A stretch of DNA of 20,000 nt from an uncultured virus (IMG/VR IMGVR_UViG_3300009502_000043) (Duplodnaviria; Heunggongvirae; Uroviricota; Caudoviricetes). Of the stretch, positions 1,940 to 14,257 are shown one piece after another. Position 1 is the stretch's first letter; every line of letters starts with the position of its first letter. A program made the position numbers and the translations under genes. The stretch is from the IMG/VR virus record IMGVR_UViG_3300009502_000043. One strand, 5' to 3'. The notes beneath the pieces were generated by a model, which was given only the letters and a program-made list of their open reading frames with translations, was not told the DNA's origin and searched no databases.

Positions 1940-2677
1940 ATGACAGCTGGAGGATTAACAACAATCTTAAAATTAGATGTTGATATTAATGATCAAAACA
2001 TAAGAGCATGTTCACCATTATCTGCATTTAACAATTTTATTCAGGAAATATCACGAATGTGTGATGAAGTTTTTTATCCTGATTACAGAGGTAATGTGAA
2101 TCAAATGTTAATGCGAAATGAAATATTTTTCGAAGATTATTCAATTTTATTTTTCAACTTTATAAAGTTATCATATGTTGATCATGGAATAAAAATAAAT
2201 TTCATTGGAGACATTGATATGGATAAATTATCATATGTTGAAAAATTTATTGTCGAAAAAGAAAAAATTATCTTTTTGTTTCAAAAGTATTTGTATATAA
2301 TTTCAGAAGTATCTGAAAATTATGATCATACAATTGCTCAGAAATATGTTGATGATATTTTCAAAAAAGTAAAATCTACCAAAACTGAAACAGAAATGTT
2401 TCTCGTACCTCACAAAAATAAAATTAATCATTTATTTGATAATAATGATCATACATTAGAAAAGTTATACAACAAATTTTCATATGTTATTACTTTCATC
2501 AATAATAAGCATACCTTTACTTATAAATTAATGAGAGTATTATCATCTGATTTAGATGAATCAAAATCATTGGAAAATATCAGATTTTTAGAAAAAGAAA
2601 CTATCAAATTTGATACAATTAATATTTTTGAGTTAAGTAACTTTTTATGCAAATTGTATTATTACGGAGAAATTTAA
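1940..2677 (+). CDS. hypothetical protein (245 aa)
   Basis: Long ORF in an operon with the helicase. Confidence 0.8.
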   Translation: MTAGGLTTILKLDVDINDQNIRACSPLSAFNNFIQEISRMCDEVFYPDYRGNVNQMLMRNEIFFEDYSILFFNFIKLSYVDHGIKINFIGDIDMDKLSYVEKFIVEKEKIIFLFQKYLYIISEVSENYDHTIAQKYVDDIFKKVKSTKTETEMFLVPHKNKINHLFDNNDHTLEKLYNKFSYVITFINNKHTFTYKLMRVLSSDLDESKSLENIRFLEKETIKFDTINIFELSNFLCKLYYYGEI

Positions 2678-2691
2678 AAAATTATTATCAA

Positions 2692-4620
2692 ATGATAGAC
2701 GAAAGTGTTTTAGATCAAGATATGCTCGATACGGGAATACTTGATTATGTTGAACCTGAAAAAGATTTACATTATAACATCAGAAATGTTGAACAAAAAG
2801 ATATTATTGAAGCAGTAAAAGCATGTTTGAAAGTATCAGATTTAATACAACCAAATAAGTCTTTAGTAAATTCAGTTTTTGCAATTTTGACAACATTATA
2901 TCTTGAAGACAAAAAATATGCAATAATTGAAGCACCTACAGGTAGTGGAAAAACAATCATTGGATTTATGGTATATTTTTGTACACAATATCTTCATTAT
3001 AGATGTGAACAAAAAGATCAATTAAATTCAATTGCAAAACCTGGTGAACCATTGAAAAATGTTGCATATTTTTTAACATCAGCAAAAATGTTACAAGAGC
3101 AAATTGATAAAGATTTAGATCGATTTACTTTTCGCGATTATATTTCAATGGTTAAAGGTGTTGATAATTATGAATGTATTGATGCAACTAAAAAAGCCAA
3201 ACATATGTTGGCTCCAGGTGAAAAAATAAAATATTCAGAAAGAAGTTGTATTGGAATGGTTAAGAAAGATAGACAAATAATATATTCACATTGTGATAAT
3301 ATTTGTTCATATCAACTCGCAAGACTTGAAGCTTCTGAAAAATCATGTACAGTATTAAATTACGCTTATTTCTTAAATGTCCTGAAAGGTGAATTTAATC
3401 CATTTTTCGCAAAACGTTTTTTAACAATTGCTGATGAAGCTCATTTAATTCCCGATATTGTTTGTAATATCTTCAATTATGAATTTACTCAGTATATTAT
3501 TAACAGAGCTTTCAAAATATTGAATGAAATCGAATTTACATATGGTGATAAAGATATGCTTGATATGAAATCTTCGTTAATGATTTGTTTTAAAGTATTC
3601 AATGAACCATTGAACAGATTATCTGAAGTAATGGATTATTTGAATAATTTGAAAATATTTTACGATAAATTCATTGAACTTGAAAAAGTAAAACCAGAAG
3701 TATTAAATACACATAAAATTACCATTTATAAGTTGATTGAATCTTTAAAATCAATACTTGAAAGTATTGAATCTATAAATGATTTAATAATAAATCGTCC
3801 AGAAGATATTTATTTTGAATCTGAAGAAGTTGCATTTGAAAAAATAACAGGTGCTAAAGTTTACAAGCATATTGTTAAAGATTTATCTGAAGCTGAAATG
3901 GTTCGTAAATATTTCCTAACCAAAGTAAATAAGTGTGTTTTTATGTCTGCAACTCTTGGAGATGTTGATGAATATGCAAAAATGATGGGAATGGCTGAAA
4001 ATGAATATGGTGGATTAAGATTACCATCATCATTCAATTTTGAAACTTCACCAGTTTATCTTTGTAGATCAGGATGGTTAAATTATGCTAATTTTGAAAA
4101 TAATATTGACAAAATTCTTATGGATACTTTGAAAATTTGTGAAAGTTATCATCCAAATGAAAAAGGTATTGTACATACTTCAACATTCAAAATTTGCCAA
4201 TTATTACAAACAAAAGTCAATAATAAATTGGTTAAAAGTCCAGATCGTTATCTTTTTTACAAAACTGCTGAAGAAAAGGAAAATTGCGTAAAGTTAATGA
4301 TGAATAGTCAAATTCCTTATGTAATTATTGGTCCTTCACTTTATGAAGGATTAGATTTGAAAGATGATGCTGGAAGATTCAATATTCTTATGAAAGTACC
4401 ATATTCTGGCTTAAGTGATTATGTCAAGAAAAAAATGGAAAGATTTCCTTTTTGGTACAGACGTAATGTGTTGGAAAAAATTACACAAGCTGTTGGACGT
4501 ACAAATCGTCATGTTAACGATTATTCAACAACATATTTGCTTGATTCATCATTTGATAAAATCATTTATGATACAAATCAAATAATAGTTGATAGATTAC
4601 AATTCAAAACAATAAGGTGA
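2692..4620 (+). CDS. dinG: DinG/XPD(Rad3)-family SF2 DNA helicase with putative Fe-S cluster
   Basis: Walker A EAPTGSGKT, motif II DEAH, motif III SATLG, motif V YEGLDLK, motif VI QAVGRTNRHVNDY, and four Cys between motifs I and II (NYEC, RSC, HCDNIC). ATG 2692 is preferred over 2647 because it avoids overlap with the upstream gene. Confidence 0.9.
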   Translation: MIDESVLDQDMLDTGILDYVEPEKDLHYNIRNVEQKDIIEAVKACLKVSDLIQPNKSLVNSVFAILTTLYLEDKKYAIIEAPTGSGKTIIGFMVYFCTQYLHYRCEQKDQLNSIAKPGEPLKNVAYFLTSAKMLQEQIDKDLDRFTFRDYISMVKGVDNYECIDATKKAKHMLAPGEKIKYSERSCIGMVKKDRQIIYSHCDNICSYQLARLEASEKSCTVLNYAYFLNVLKGEFNPFFAKRFLTIADEAHLIPDIVCNIFNYEFTQYIINRAFKILNEIEFTYGDKDMLDMKSSLMICFKVFNEPLNRLSEVMDYLNNLKIFYDKFIELEKVKPEVLNTHKITIYKLIESLKSILESIESINDLIINRPEDIYFESEEVAFEKITGAKVYKHIVKDLSEAEMVRKYFLTKVNKCVFMSATLGDVDEYAKMMGMAENEYGGLRLPSSFNFETSPVYLCRSGWLNYANFENNIDKILMDTLKICESYHPNEKGIVHTSTFKICQLLQTKVNNKLVKSPDRYLFYKTAEEKENCVKLMMNSQIPYVIIGPSLYEGLDLKDDAGRFNILMKVPYSGLSDYVKKKMERFPFWYRRNVLEKITQAVGRTNRHVNDYSTTYLLDSSFDKIIYDTNQIIVDRLQFKTIR

Positions 4621-4761: not shown

Positions 4762-5361
4762 ATGAAAAACAAGAACACTCGTAATTTCCTTGAAGTTATG
4801 ATGAAATTACGTCGCATTTCGATGAATTTGGAAATTGAAAAAGTAACTAAAAGCTTAGAAATTATTCTTGGTCCACAAGACACAATTAGCTTTGATGTTA
4901 CAAAGAAATGTTTCATTATTAATTCGATAACTTGCGGATTACATTTTCCAAATTGGCACCCTAAACCATCTGATATTGATTTCATATTGGGCAATTTTTC
5001 AGATGATCAAATATTTTTAGCAACTGAAAAAATAAATATCGAAATATTCAATATTTATAAAGACATGGATGCTATATTGTTATATGGTAGTTTATATTCC
5101 ATATTAATGTTGATGAAACTTCCTGAAAATCAATTGACACCAAGAATTACATTAAATTTTGGAAAATATTCAATCATTTATAATGATTTTGTAAATAAAT
5201 TTATGATTGCCGATATTGAACAAGATTCGGAATTTTTTCATGAATTTAATCCAAATATATTATTTCCAGAATTGTTGAAACATCAAAAATATTCTGATGT
5301 TTTTAAAGCTTTGGATGAAACTTTTAATAAATTGGTATTTAAATCTAATTTACTACGTTAA
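4762..5361 (+). CDS. hypothetical protein (199 aa)
   Basis: ORF after the promoter motif, with a TAATG overlap with the next gene. Confidence 0.8.
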   Translation: MKNKNTRNFLEVMMKLRRISMNLEIEKVTKSLEIILGPQDTISFDVTKKCFIINSITCGLHFPNWHPKPSDIDFILGNFSDDQIFLATEKINIEIFNIYKDMDAILLYGSLYSILMLMKLPENQLTPRITLNFGKYSIIYNDFVNKFMIADIEQDSEFFHEFNPNILFPELLKHQKYSDVFKALDETFNKLVFKSNLLR

Positions 5362-6158
5362 TGTCTGAAATTATTGATGCGAAAATAATAACACCGAAAC
5401 CAGTTGTATCTTGGTGGAAAAGTGGTGACCCATGCTTGTATATATCTAAATGGAGAAATAAATTGACAGAAATAAATGTTATCGAAACAAAACATTTATC
5501 TGATGAATTTATTCAAATTTGTATTGAAGAAAAACATTCCATATTTCTCCATGTAAATATTACAGGTATGGGTAAAACTATTTTTGAACCAAAAATTCCA
5601 ACCGTAAAGGAAACGTTTTTCCAAATAAAAAAATTAATTGATTTAGGATTTCCACAAAAACAAATACTTGTTTGTGTTGATCCAATATTACCAAATGATA
5701 ATGGATTGAATGCTCTTAAACTTTTACTCAAAGTATTTACAGAATATAGAGTATTAAGATTAAGAAATGTTAGATTTAATGTTCTCCATTATAAAGAAAT
5801 CGAAAGTACATCAAATAAAAAATATACAATTGCAAATCAGAACATAACTTCCAGACAATCAACAAAAGGAATTATGCAATATTTAACATCTTCACCAACT
5901 TTTTTTAAAGATTATTATAAATTGATTGATCAGTATAAAACAATTATTTCTGTTGATCATTCAATTGAAGCAAAAGTTGGAATACGTGAACTTATTGTAT
6001 TTGGTTATAAAAATGAATGGATTAATACTGATGGAAGTCGAGAAAAAATTATCGAATATGAAAAAGGTAATAAATTCAAACCTTTATTAAATGTTATATC
6101 TGATAAAAATCCAATTCGTTGTCAAAATCGATGTTTGCTTTGTGCACATAAATATTGA
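5361..6158 (+). CDS. DUF1848-like protein with C-terminal CxxxCxxC (radical-SAM-like Fe-S motif)
   Basis: HVNITGMGKTIFEPKIP...QILVCVDPIL and terminal CQNRCLLC match the remembered DUF1848 pattern (T.TgY...lEP.vP...WRyDPI...CxxxCxYC). Confidence 0.6.
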   Translation: MSEIIDAKIITPKPVVSWWKSGDPCLYISKWRNKLTEINVIETKHLSDEFIQICIEEKHSIFLHVNITGMGKTIFEPKIPTVKETFFQIKKLIDLGFPQKQILVCVDPILPNDNGLNALKLLLKVFTEYRVLRLRNVRFNVLHYKEIESTSNKKYTIANQNITSRQSTKGIMQYLTSSPTFFKDYYKLIDQYKTIISVDHSIEAKVGIRELIVFGYKNEWINTDGSREKIIEYEKGNKFKPLLNVISDKNPIRCQNRCLLCAHKY

Positions 6159-6215: not shown

Positions 6216-6248
6216 CATATTCAGAAATTAAATAGGATATATAAATTA
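6216..6248 (+). promoter_or_regulatory. putative phage promoter, copy 3
   Basis: CATATT-N13-GGATATATAAATTA. Confidence 0.7.
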
Positions 6249-6631: not shown

Positions 6632-7195
6632 ATGACACAAGAAAATCAGAATGCTGACGTTTTGTCAGAAGGTTTGGAAGTTGGTGAAGTTGTAGCACCA
6701 GAAACAGGCGAAAAAGCTCCTAAAGTAAAAAAAGATCAAACACCGGAAGAAGCCGCACAAATTGAAGCAGGTATTGCAAAAATCAAACAATTTGGTGTAG
6801 GTACAAAGTTTGCCTTGGTTATGGACAACCTGGCAGTTGCCTGGAACAGTGGTGACAAAGATGTTTTGACTGCTAACAAAGAAGCTCTTATGAAAGAGTT
6901 TGGTGGTTCTGAAAACCTTAAAGATTATATCGATGGTGATTTCCAGGCTGAACTTACCGAAATTCAGGGAACTGCAAAAGTTTGTTCTATCCTGAATAAC
7001 GTAAAATCATTTTACGCTCGCCGGGCAACAACAACCAAAGCAAAAACTGTTCAGGTTAATATCGGTGGTACATTGTACAATGTTGATGCAGCTTACTATG
7101 CTGAAATTGCAAACGAAACTCGCGAAACAAAACGTGAACTTTTACTTGCACATGCCGGTACCCAGGTTGCTACATCAGTACCAGAAGTACTGTAG
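6632..7195 (+). CDS. hypothetical protein (187 aa), probably highly expressed
   Basis: Ala/Glu/Lys-rich ORF with noticeably more C-ending codons (AAC, ATC, TTC, GCC) than its neighbours, followed by a strong terminator. Confidence 0.88.
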   Translation: MTQENQNADVLSEGLEVGEVVAPETGEKAPKVKKDQTPEEAAQIEAGIAKIKQFGVGTKFALVMDNLAVAWNSGDKDVLTANKEALMKEFGGSENLKDYIDGDFQAELTEIQGTAKVCSILNNVKSFYARRATTTKAKTVQVNIGGTLYNVDAAYYAEIANETRETKRELLLAHAGTQVATSVPEVL

Positions 7196-7226
7196 TCAGT
7201 AAAAAAGCTCAATACAGATTAGATTT

Positions 7227-7270
7227 AAAACCCTGGGGACTAACAATAACAATACCCAGGGTTTTTTTTT
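7227..7270 (+). terminator. intrinsic terminator
   Basis: AAAACCCTGGG...CCCAGGG followed by T9. Confidence 0.8.
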
Positions 7271-7296
7271 CCTAAAGTTATTAAAAACATCAAAAC

Positions 7297-7706
7297 GGGG
7301 AATCTTGGTTTTGACAGCATAGAGACAGGTAATCATTCAACACGAATATGATAAAATTTCGGTAAAAAGTTATCAAAAACAATAACAGGCAAAGGAAAAA
7401 TCGTGAATTTCTTAGACAAGGTCTTTGGAAATTCAAACGAAGAAGTATCAATGCAAATTGCTGCTTAATTTCATAACTTATTATTTTTTAATGAAAAGAG
7501 TTTGGGATTTACAGAGTTAATGAAAATTCCTGGTGGAAACTGGTGGAGTGTATCAAAACCAGTCAGCCCAAATTTTGGTTGTTTTATTAAAAGGTTTTGT
7601 CCTGAAAAACAACATACTGATGTGATTGTGAAAGAATCACAAGAAGTTGTAGCAAGATGATTATTGGTCCTTTGTTTGGACACCGGTTCGAGTCCGGTAT
7701 TCTCCA
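7297..7706 (+). ncRNA. ssrA: tmRNA (transfer-messenger RNA)
   Basis: 5' GGGGAATcttGGtttTGAC. 3' T-arm ACCGG-TTCGAGT-CCGGT plus ATTCTCC-A. The acceptor stem has the G3-U alanine identity pair. Internal tag frame 7388-7468 follows ATAACA and ends ...QIAA-TAA. CCA is not encoded (CTA). Confidence 0.95.
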
Positions 7707-7713
7707 CTAATAA

Positions 7714-8520
7714 TGATTTGAATAAAAATCAGATCAAACAATATTTAAAACATTCCGCCAATGTAGGCACCGAAATGACGGTTATATGCCATCTCCGTCA
7801 TAGCCTTCCGGAATCCGCCGGGAAATTTGGATAAAGAAGTTTGGATTAAATTCCGATATGTAACTTCATCCTACTCCCATCATGAAGTGTTTGAAAAAAG
7901 TAGAATATCAAACACAAAACGATATGGTTCTGCTCATAATATGAATGAAGATCATATTCGCCTCGCTAAGGTACCCAGGAAGTATTTGAATAATCGAATA
8001 TTACTGTAAAGTGCAAAAAAATGTTGGAATGATTCTTATGTGCACGTATTGCTTGAATTTCAACAGTAAACCAATTAGATTTTTCGGTTATATTCCGCCA
8101 GTAGAATATCGGTTAGTCGTGAATTGCTTCCGATATATCTTATATCGCGGTCAAAGATTGTCCGGTCAAGATTCGCGTATTCGCTTACAGTACCGACCGA
8201 TCAAGTTTCGGAAATCATTTGGTTGAAAATTTTGAGTATCTTTAATATTTGAAAGTCTTACGACAGTAGAATATGCTCAAAATTTTTTATTTGGTAATTT
8301 ATTAAAAGTTAGTGTGACGTTTGTTAAGTAATTTCGAGTTGCCGAATATTTTTGATTTAGTCAAGAATTTCGTTCAAACAAACATTAGTTTTTGATTCTT
8401 TATAGGTGAGAGTCGAAAATGTGGACTGGTTCCGAGCCTCTCAGGAAAAAATCGGAAAATAATAAAATGTTTTCTGTTTCCATGGAAAAGAATACCAGCA
8501 ATCAAGAAATTTCTTTTCCA
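7714..8520 (+). ncRNA. candidate large structured non-coding RNA(s) of unknown family
   Basis: GC-enriched ~800 nt with no credible ORF, tiled by stems (e.g. 7775-7801, 7863-7888, 7887-7915, 8106-8136, 8226-8286, 8306-8391) that contain G-U pairs in the + orientation. Lies between tmRNA and tRNA. Boundaries are uncertain. Confidence 0.6.
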
Positions 8521-8524
8521 AAAC

Positions 8525-8597
8525 TGTCTTGTGGTGTAATTGGCAACACGTCTGGTTTTGGTCCAGAAGAGTTCAGGTTCGAGACCTGATGAGACAA
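8525..8597 (+). tRNA. tRNA-Gln (anticodon TTG)
   Basis: Cloverleaf: acceptor TGTCTTG/TGAGACA, D-arm GTGT-AATTGGCA-ACAC, anticodon arm TCTGG-TTTTGGT-CCAGA (TTG at 8558-8560), T-arm TCAGG-TTCGAGA-CCTGA. No encoded CCA. Confidence 0.95.
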
Positions 8598-8666
8598 CGA
8601 TTTTAGTGAATATAAGGTTAAAGGTTTAAAGGTTTAGTGATTATTTGGCTCATAAGAGCTTTGATT

Positions 8667-8700
8667 AAGAGGGAAGCAAAGCAATTTGTTTCCCTTTTTT
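8667..8700 (+). terminator. intrinsic terminator ending the RNA cluster
   Basis: AGGGAAGCAAA-gcaa-TTTGTTTCCCT plus T-tract. Confidence 0.85.
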
Positions 8701-8716
8701 ATTTTATTCGTCAATC

Positions 8717-8749
8717 CATATTGCCATAAAATACTGGATAAATATATTA
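8717..8749 (+). promoter_or_regulatory. putative phage promoter, copy 4
   Basis: CATATT-gccataaaatact-GGATAAATATATTA. Confidence 0.7.
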
Positions 8750-8776
8750 GTAACAAATCACTAAAATCATATATAA

Positions 8777-9202
8777 ATGGAAGATAACGATTATATAATT
8801 CAAACACCAAAAGATTTCATTCTTGGTGGGAAAGCAAATTTCACTGTTGAAAATTCAATTACAAAAAACAGATTTACATATACAATCAATCAAAATAAGA
8901 AAGATAATAAAATGTATTTTGTTAAAGTAAGTTATGCTTATGGTGAATATATGTACATTGGAGCATTAATTAATACTTCTTATGGATTTAAATTTAAAAT
9001 ATCTGCGAAACTTATTGAAAGTGAAACACCACCATCTGTAAAAGTAATTGAATATATTATCAAATGGTATCTGAACTTAGATCATCCTCATCAAAATATG
9101 ATATTTTATCATCATGGACATTGTTGTAGATGTGGTAGAGTACTTACTACTCCAGAAAGTGTTATTAAAGGAATTGGACCATTTTGTGAAGGATTAGACT
9201 AA
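8777..9202 (+). CDS. DUF6011-domain (zinc-finger-like) phage protein
   Basis: C-terminal CCRCGRVLTTPESVIKGIGPFC matches CxxCGRxLTxPxSxxxGIGPxC. Confidence 0.8.
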   Translation: MEDNDYIIQTPKDFILGGKANFTVENSITKNRFTYTINQNKKDNKMYFVKVSYAYGEYMYIGALINTSYGFKFKISAKLIESETPPSVKVIEYIIKWYLNLDHPHQNMIFYHHGHCCRCGRVLTTPESVIKGIGPFCEGLD

Positions 9203-12863: not shown

Positions 12864-13276
12864 AAGTACCTTTTGATGATATTATCGATATTTTCAAGAA
12901 AAAATATTCATCTGAACAATCTGATATTGATCTTTTTTATTTGGGTTGGAATGAATGTGTTCTTGGTTGGAAACCTACAATAATTGATAAATCATATTCA
13001 CGATTCTCCGATATAGTAAATATAAATGAATTTCATTTTTTCTTATTTGGTTGGAATTGTTGTGAAGCTTTTTTCTACAATGTTAATGATATGTGGCAAC
13101 TTTTCGAAAGAAATGATAAAATTTATAATCATCATATTATTGAAGAAATAATGAAAACCTTTATGGAAAGAATTATTCGAGATAAAATAAAACTCAGTTC
13201 TGAAATGAAAAATCTTATTTCAGTTTTCAATAAAATTTCTGATGCTGTTATATCTTCTAAAAAACCTAAAACCTAA
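12860..13276 (+). CDS. hypothetical protein with duplicated FxxGWNxC motif
   Basis: ATGA overlap. Contains FYLGWNEC and FLFGWNCC. Confidence 0.78.
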   Translation: MKVPFDDIIDIFKKKYSSEQSDIDLFYLGWNECVLGWKPTIIDKSYSRFSDIVNINEFHFFLFGWNCCEAFFYNVNDMWQLFERNDKIYNHHIIEEIMKTFMERIIRDKIKLSSEMKNLISVFNKISDAVISSKKPKT

Positions 13277-13281
13277 GAATA

Positions 13282-13791
13282 ATGAATGTAGCTAATCAAT
13301 TAAAAAAGATTGAACTTGCATCAGCAATTAATGATATTGTTGAAACGTTCCTTCCAAGATTTACAAAAGATAAAGTTCTTATTGTAAATATTCGTTTTCA
13401 TATTGATAATTTCAAAACCAATGAAACAGTAAACAGAAATCTTTCAATTTTATATTACAGACCACAAAATTATATGTTTGTTGGTACTTATTTGGAAAAC
13501 AAAGATTTAACAATAATTGGTAATTTGAAAACAATGTTTTTTCCAAACAAAGTTCAACAAGAATTGGCAAAACATTCTTATCATGATAGTTGTTGGAGAT
13601 CTGGAACTGAAACTATAATAAATAAGGTTGCTCAATCTATTTACGATAAGTTAAAAGATGCTGATGATGAATATCATGTTTACACAGCATTTGCAATAAA
13701 TCCATTTGAAATTGTTTCAGCAAAAATCGATATTCGTGAGAAAACTGCCACTTATATTCCAATTGAAGTTGAAATACCTTTGAAAAAATAA
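13282..13791 (+). CDS. hypothetical protein (169 aa)
   Basis: ORF ending just before a terminator. Confidence 0.8.
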   Translation: MNVANQLKKIELASAINDIVETFLPRFTKDKVLIVNIRFHIDNFKTNETVNRNLSILYYRPQNYMFVGTYLENKDLTIIGNLKTMFFPNKVQQELAKHSYHDSCWRSGTETIINKVAQSIYDKLKDADDEYHVYTAFAINPFEIVSAKIDIREKTATYIPIEVEIPLKK

Positions 13792-13811
13792 AAGTATTCA
13801 CATTTATATCG

Positions 13812-13844
13812 AAAGTCAATCAGATAACTTCTGATTGACTTTTT
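13812..13844 (+). terminator. intrinsic terminator
   Basis: AAAGTCAATCAGA-taact-TCTGATTGACTTT plus TT. Confidence 0.8.
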
Positions 13845-13861
13845 ATTTTAATCTGATAACT

Positions 13862-13894
13862 CATATTGTCATAAAATATAGGATATATAAATTA
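13862..13894 (+). promoter_or_regulatory. putative phage promoter, copy 6
   Basis: CATATT-gtcataaaatata-GGATATATAAATTA. Confidence 0.75.
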
Positions 13895-13921
13895 TATCAA
13901 AATCCTAAAAATTACAATATA

Positions 13922-14257
13922 ATGAAAAATAAAAAATTCGAAACTGAAAGATTAAAATGGATTGCAGATAATCCAGGATTTGAAGAAAATGAATTGAGAG
14001 CTTTTTTTGCTGGTTATGATGCAGCAAGTAAAACAACAATTGCATATTCTGATCAATATGAAGAAAAAGATCGTATTTTTCCAAAACATAAATTAGTTGA
14101 ACATTGTGTGTTTGACGTAAATGATCAGGAAGAAGCTGAATTGTATTGTTGTATTGCTGAAGTTGCTGAAAAAAATAATGTGCAACAAAATGATCTTGGA
14201 CATTTATTTCCAGCAATATTGCGAATGTTAAAATCAACAATTAATTGGTCAAAATAA
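13922..14257 (+). CDS. hypothetical protein (111 aa)
   Basis: ATG at 13922 lies downstream of the promoter motif. The track start at 13835 falls inside the terminator. Confidence 0.78.
   Translation: MKNKKFETERLKWIADNPGFEENELRAFFAGYDAASKTTIAYSDQYEEKDRIFPKHKLVEHCVFDVNDQEEAELYCCIAEVAEKNNVQQNDLGHLFPAILRMLKSTINWSK

Follow-up and report, generated by a model that had tools for sequence, protein, structure and literature searches.

The gap between a tmRNA gene (7297..7709, + strand) and a tRNA-Gln(UUG) gene (8525..8598, + strand) of an uncultured phage very probably holds a real structured RNA. Judged by comparison with related phages, this RNA appears to belong to a new family of structured RNAs in phages, similar in kind to GOLLD and ROOL, with solid support for a double pseudoknot at its 3' end and moderate support for its body. 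The DNA analysed here, referred to as the window, is a stretch of 20,000 nt, and the tmRNA to tRNA-Gln gap within it measures 815 nt. The structured RNA is recognised because of this comparison with relatives, and not because of folding energy or stem counts. Its knotted tail is kept in relatives and no catalogued RNA family matches it, so that it is a candidate for a new class among the large structural RNAs. Descriptions of large structured RNAs from phages cover few classes so far, and the family would represent an independent case of the same layout as the known ones.

The window is AT-rich phage DNA, found in freshwater metagenome runs. Its helicase (2647-4620) has its nearest counterparts in Sphingomonas phage PAU and the Tenacibaculum phages PTm1 and PTm5, at about 29% identity, and the host of the phage may accordingly be sought among the Bacteroidota. 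The RNA is best explained as belonging to a family of phages of roughly 160-210 kb. The RNA slot always comes after a conserved phage gene of 187 aa (6632..7195, + strand), of unassigned function, which has 49 homologues and is also present in phages without the RNA. The protein has no Pfam or PHROG match, and a fold search gave no clear match (best Z 5.0; none at E<=0.001). The upstream gene order is kept in relatives, comprising the helicase, the ORFs at 5361 and 6288, and the 187-aa gene. The first of these ORFs (5361-6158) encodes a protein of 265 aa, with 47-75% identity among members and a C-terminal C-x3-C-x2-C; three of 19 members show weak DUF1848 matches (best E 0.0096), and the role may be radical-SAM-like. 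The motif GGATATATAAAT is repeated ahead of gene starts at 6235, 13881, 15664 and 17867, is also present in relatives, and may be a phage promoter. Between the 187-aa gene and the tmRNA, a hairpin with a U-tract (7228..7270, + strand) can be seen directly in the sequence, only about 27 nt from the tmRNA; it is terminator-like or a processing site, and a terminator scan gave no call on it. Downstream of the tRNA, an intrinsic terminator-like hairpin of 14 pairs with a U-tract (8667..8698, + strand) closes the RNA operon.

Relatives were collected by alignment of the 187-aa gene, which gave 33 loci, and of the 265-aa gene, which gave two more phages. Once duplicates were merged there were 30 distinct loci, three of which stop at the gene, leaving 27 informative ones. 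The slot 3' of the 187-aa gene is filled in these relatives with tmRNA, tRNAs and non-coding gaps, and four of them (L010, L003, L011 and L017) repeat the order of gene, tmRNA, a gap of 640-885 nt, and tRNA. The RNA is shorter in relatives than in the window, where it spans about 700-810 nt. When the region was compared by blastn with 50,697 phage records, the best 30 of 65 matches were to tRNAs, and the 3' domain, used as query in two further searches, matched only short stretches by chance. Locus searches by single protein gave no match, and four scans of viral contigs for DNA patterns returned only three loci that were already in the set (L034, L060 and L063) and nine chance loci.

The best-supported part of the RNA is a conserved double-pseudoknot domain at its 3' end (8405..8520, + strand), which was absent from the stem list of the initial annotation. 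It was spotted by eye, then parsed with a descriptor, and then aligned; a covariance model and covariation add to the evidence. On the + strand, the pseudoknot pk1 (8405-8407/8494-8496) is followed by the helix P1 (8408-8412/8438-8442), which encloses one hairpin. Within P1 lie the joiner UCGAAAA (8413-8419; UCNAAAA across members), the second pseudoknot pk2 (8420-8421/8503-8504) and the helix P2 (8422-8425/8431-8434). An optional hairpin (8443-8482) is followed by P3 (8483-8492/8511-8520), whose loop contains both pseudoknot partners, and the tRNA-Gln starts 4 nt past P3. The distance from pk1' to pk2' is 6 nt in 13 of 14 members. The pairs of P1 vary freely in sequence and the helix closes locally, and the unpaired positions of the alignment include invariant U and A residues and no invariant G or C.

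All 18 pairs of the domain changed on both sides in the model-fitted alignment, where 87% of cells pair, versus 62% when shuffled and at most 61% in slid registers. The structure-blind alignment gave the same kind of change at 17 of 18 pairs. The outer pair of pk2, which lies outside the model, is paired in 14/14 members (GC 5, CG 4, UA 4, UG 1), and its inner pair in 10/14 cells, with two unpaired and two gapped where the alignment slips. The pk1 helix is likewise paired in 14/14, as GGU/ACC in 12, GGA/UCC once and CGU/GCG once. These counts are inflated by kinship, L003/L011 and L022/L023 being close, and the changes fall on separate branches. The covariation in homologues that the initial annotation proposed to look for was found here as compensatory changes, and the comparative pattern demonstrates selection for pairing in a predicted compact double pseudoknot.

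The covariance model of the domain, R1, was built without the pseudoknots and searched over the related loci and 13 whole records. It gave 17 matches at 38.6-80 bits in 37 sources, with the next best at 17.5; 14 of them belong to the training set, two duplicate other members, and one (L013) is a held-out truncated member. The domain is present in 14 of the 27 informative relatives, once per locus and always behind the 187-aa gene, and it is single-copy in 3/3 whole records carrying it. It is missing from the other 13 of 27 and is therefore dispensable. No credible R1 match was found in Cellulophaga phi4:1, PAU, PTm1 and two huge uncultured phages, nor in G003, G004, G008, L053 and L055. Of 11 tabulated loci, nine have a tRNA 2-6 nt past the end of P3 and two have it 29-34 nt away; four different tRNAs are involved. 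There is no tRNA directly after the domain in L007 and L020, and in L007 the domain lies about 130 nt past the gene, without a body. The domain is followed in L001 (about 6945-7000) and L007 (about 6890-6915) by tRNA-like remnants with a T arm and an acceptor-like stem and no evident anticodon arm, which may be processing sites.

The body of the RNA (7710-8404) gave no global alignment, even to the closest relative, L010. Its variable 5' region (7710..7919, + strand) forms local hairpins, whose stems are present, and aligned locally with none of 20 related segments at a significant level; its variable middle region (8027..8225, + strand) had no alignable counterpart among 20 such segments, and a U-rich linker (8287..8404, + strand) leads to the 3' domain. 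The comparison of the body with the 20 segments yielded one outlier, 7926-8021 with L002 (z 4.3), and the same part also aligns with L003, L011 and L017. This mid domain (7920..8026, + strand) is supported by the alignment with L002, profiles, a descriptor and pair checks. It consists of a closing helix (7920-7925/8021-8026), the hairpin Pb (7939-7957, loop UGAAGA at 7946-7951), a short helix Pd (7965-7966/8013-8014) and a variable hairpin Pc (7976-8006), all on the + strand. With leave-out profiles the held-out window was the top match (E 0.012), the syntenic top new matches were L003 (E 0.27), L011 (0.19) and L017 (0.35), and the held-out L002 was missed. The mid domain was later found in L014 and L004, of which the model R2 missed the first and gave the second E 0.63. 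The descriptor, which was tuned on the same RNAs it scored, gave 5 matches in 7.9 kb of slots versus 2 in 453 kb elsewhere.

The mid domain thus recurs in six relatives (L002, L003, L011, L017, L014 and L004) and was unrecognised in 8 of 15 module-bearing RNAs, L010 among them. It occurs only ever together with the 3' domain (7/7) and is found on both sides of well-supported tree nodes. Between L003 and L011, the core shows 86-98% identity in four of five 50-nt bins and 70% at the variable hairpin. Because this core identity exceeds that of the four-fold sites (69-70%), the body is under selection, at least in these two. The comparison lends moderate support to the mid domain as a conserved RNA element. 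As a further observation, AGTAGAATA occurs three times within the RNA region (7899-7909, 8100-8110 and 8265-8275); it is not a common feature of relatives, and the copies could be loop-E or bulged-G strands.

A docking helix of 13-14 bp (8226..8286, + strand) follows the middle region and carries a 5' bulge, UCUUUA (8239-8244). In the window, this bulge is complementary to the Pb loop UGAAGA, which lies 290 nt upstream. Candidate sites for such a kiss were set by folding alone, with 16 possible loops per RNA. The kiss is perfect (6/6), with the RNA's own loop the best of 16, in four of six independent RNAs, L002, L011, L017 and L014, the pairs being UGGAGA/UCUCCA, UGAAAC/GUUUCA twice, and UGAAGA/UCUUCA. 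The window scores 5.5/6 and L003 scores 5, and L004 fails at 4.5. In a permutation test 4/720 arrangements reach the observed sum, for a hypothesis drawn from the very sequences tested and 6-mers that singly often pair by chance (P 0.04-0.54). An automated prediction left the kiss unconfirmed in L010, L022 and L023, and the same test missed the known partners in the window, L002 and L014. The order of mid domain, docking helix and 3' domain is constant. The docking bulge lies 165 nt from the 3' domain in the window, 144-167 nt across the window, L003, L011 and L014, and 277 nt in L017; in L002, a tRNA-Asn sits between the docking helix and the 3' domain, and the distance minus this tRNA is about 148 nt. 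No pairing was found between the body and the 3' domain. Changes of the Pb loop and the downstream bulge in step with one another give moderate support to a predicted kiss.

Several observations of the initial annotation, made from the window alone, can be re-examined with these data. The region is indeed the longest gene-free stretch, since 7708-8776 has no ORF of at least 75 aa (1069 nt including the tRNA; the runner-up has 275 nt), and tmRNA and tRNA-Gln(UUG) do flank it on the + strand. All eight of the named stem or pseudoknot pairings are present, as is the 14-bp stem 8226-8286, which is the docking helix. Enrichment in GC holds against 13 of 14 controls (0.34 versus 0.24-0.31) and fails against the upstream-gene control (0.36). 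The supposed folding excess did not survive its controls: the + strand of the region has z -4.43 against its own shuffles, and in the comparison with 14 windows of the same length (815 nt) it stands at -4.57 versus -6.18 to -1.07, with two of the 14 better. Control windows of 347 nt gave z -3.97 to +1.63. The density of stems was no more distinctive, with 16 stems of at least 7 bp versus 6-24 across 22 control windows. Folding energy is no evidence for an RNA here because coding DNA of the same phage folds as well, and both the z-score and the stem density were dropped as evidence, the coding controls being equal to the region. Strong folding excess was also seen in the coding stretches 1000-1814 (z -4.1), 4800-5614 (-6.2) and 13200-14014 (-4.8).

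The + strand had been argued from G-U pairs. The strand is right, and it is assigned because of genomic context and covariation; the G-U argument itself is weak. The energy difference between plus and minus strands, -27 kcal/mol in the region versus -44 to +7 in 13 + strand gene controls, arises because of G skew in the window. The letters of the proposed pseudoknot GTGCA 8011/TGCAC 8041 do pair, but the pairing competes with helix 7965-7966/8013-8014, which is kept in relatives. The pairing 7763/7870 and the closure 8069/8224 have no alignable homologue. The description of about 800 nt as densely structured is supported over part of that length only: comparative support is strong for about 115 nt (the 3' domain), moderate for about 170 nt (the mid domain and docking helix) and nil for the remainder. 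The proposal of a novel non-coding RNA on the + strand beside tmRNA and tRNA is borne out by covariation in relatives and no Rfam match: nothing reaches the gathering score between tmRNA and tRNA, and only chance-level matches appear at E<=10. A spacer without function, an element acting at the DNA level, or small protein genes would be a very improbable account of the region. Folding no better than coding DNA and a body that is mostly unalignable would fit such an account, as would the short ORFs 7827-8009 and 8011-8226 (60 and 71 aa). Against it stand the pseudoknot covariation, including G-U pairs, which contradicts it for 8405-8520, and the ORFs themselves, neither of which has a tblastn match in 49 loci of relatives or a protein family match.

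The initial annotation had named GOLLD and ROOL as possible identities, and neither covariance model matches. The GOLLD model (RF02032) had no match in 7150-8800 at E<=10 and matched 0/5 related records at E<=1, a cut-off that no control genome passed either. The ROOL model (RF03087) had no match on the region at E<=10 and matched 0/5 records; this five-record search is weak alone because the control genomes gave no match. According to PMC12286853, GOLLD is a phage RNA near tRNAs with a conserved 3' region, a variable 5' region and at times linker tRNAs, and its covarying contacts turned out to be intermolecular, as did some covarying loop contacts of ROOL. The RNA of the window resembles GOLLD, as described there, in its size of about 800 nt, its place in a phage tRNA cluster, its variable 5' and conserved 3' regions, its linker tRNA (here in L002) and a last hairpin loop with two pseudoknot contacts. 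With ROOL it has in common its large size, its location in phages close to tRNAs and loop contacts that covary over a long range; the 5' and 3' parts of ROOL are intertwined, whereas the 3' domain here is self-contained.

It could be asked whether the RNA is a very divergent GOLLD, which we consider quite unlikely. Organisation and context are alike, and the last hairpin loop of GOLLD also pairs twice, upstream and with a linker within the stem before it; by eye, the UCNAAAA joiner looks like a GOLLD loop near 761-766. The silence of RF02032 on the region and on five related records argues against it. So does the published architecture of GOLLD P23-P27, where 750-754/805-809 encloses 758-761/766-770 and 779-784/794-799, so that GOLLD has an extra hairpin within the stem where P1 encloses one; the upstream partner is a hairpin in GOLLD and a single strand here. 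The conserved core is also far smaller, about 80 positions versus 416 model positions. An RNase P RNA was considered as well: P1 with the U and C that follow it resembles the P4 of that RNA, and the mid domain its P11-P12. The P4 of RNase P RNA is invariant, whereas the pairs of P1 vary and close locally, and the bacterial type A model (RF00010) matched 0/5 records with 11/14 controls positive. In the literature no description of the 3' motif was found; motif searches over part of the supplements of PMC10690425 and PMC8040213 gave no match, and a prior listing there is possible.

Whether the 3' domain acts on its own bears on two further readings. It could be a new small self-cleaving ribozyme, or an element that acts in cis to release the tRNA behind it from the polycistronic precursor, as a 5'-side counterpart of theta ribozymes, which seems unlikely. 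It does resemble small ribozymes in size, in having two pseudoknots, in the fixed length of its joiners and in its invariant unpaired U and A residues. It is usually found 2-6 nt ahead of a tRNA, and theta (minimal HDV-like) ribozymes are, as described in PMC10879173, small double-pseudoknot RNAs abutting phage tRNA genes. Those ribozymes sit at tRNA 3' ends in that account and have a nested HDV fold, whereas the domain here precedes the tRNA and orders its strands differently. There is one copy despite several tRNAs, the spacing varies, two members have no tRNA, no Rfam ribozyme family matches, and no unpaired G or C is invariant. The strand order is also unlike that of the HDV, twister and pistol folds. 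Alternatively, the slot could be a cassette of at least two independent medium RNAs, a double-pseudoknot RNA of 70-115 nt and a body comprising mid domain and docking helix (about 370 nt), processed apart; we regard this as a genuine, minor possibility. The 3' domain of L007 without a body, the tRNA that parts body from 3' domain in L002, the unrelated structured sequence filling the slot in L025, L027 and L055, and the lack of a detected pairing between body and 3' domain all speak for it. The mid domain is, however, never found without the 3' domain, and the spacing from bulge to 3' domain is steady in four RNAs and in L002 once its tRNA is subtracted, L017 being the exception. One RNA rather than several is favoured.

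Our main reading, held at a probability of about 0.5, is one large, stable, non-catalytic structural RNA (about 700-810 nt here) with a GOLLD-like layout, released when the flanking tmRNA and tRNA are processed and shielded at its 3' end by the knot. Transcription would read through from the upstream genes via tmRNA and tRNA to the terminator at 8667-8698, and GGATATATAAAT, present at 6235 among other gene starts, may serve as the phage promoter. Trimming of the tmRNA 3' end would define where the new RNA begins. RNase P cleavage at tRNAs is established tRNA maturation, and a cut at the 5' end of tRNA-Gln would set the 3' end. The 3' knot, with an A-rich loop that may pack against P1, would then block exonucleases, so that the RNA accumulates. 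The kiss could form within one chain or between chains. Its most likely role would be that of a stable scaffold or decoy, present in abundance among the translation-support RNAs of the phage (tmRNA and tRNAs), as is thought for GOLLD and ROOL; oligomerisation and the decoy role are suggested by analogy only. A more specific version can be offered tentatively, namely a further class of large ornate phage RNA, with no sequence relationship to GOLLD or ROOL, in which an interchain kiss would lead to an RNA-only oligomer and the 3' double pseudoknot would be a new fold, serving as an exonuclease-proof cap that remains once RNase P has cut at the following tRNA or tRNA-like remnant. In the RNA run X6, available as contigs only, the tmRNA and the upstream gene are covered and 7760-8520 has no contig, which carries no weight.

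The 3' domain, at 70-115 nt and backed by covariation, represents a convenient target for synthesis, probing and structure determination. Natural variants, with or without the body, with an inserted tRNA or with the RNA absent, allow tests of cages, decay resistance and cleavage.

Other RNAs occur in or near the slot of the relatives. One of them, roughly 100 nt long, has an acceptor stem, a T arm and two hairpins. It lies at 8083-8185 in L017, about 8140-8225 in L003 and about 8083-8172 in L011, and was missed by ARAGORN and Rfam gathering; in L017 its acceptor end resembles the tRNA-like domain of tmRNA (G3-U70), without the mRNA-like part. A motif is common to L003 (8409-8480), L011 (8269-8340), L017 (8346-8420) and L020 (7917-7990), where it precedes a tRNA or, in L020, the 3' domain; it is not in the window, and as a third module proposed for the linker 8287-8404 it gave no match there. 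Structured-looking non-coding sequence is seen in relatives without the 3' domain, at 6760-7110 in L025, 6800-7110 in L027, 11830-12400 in L055, 880-1140 in L018 and 6540-6800 in L019, with no Rfam gathering match to these five slot sequences. The tmRNA of L015 (2942-3350) is a permuted two-piece form downstream of tRNA-Gln, the other relatives having one-piece tmRNAs. Non-coding tandem repeats are found downstream of the slot in L026 (6680-6833) and L055 (12950-13450).
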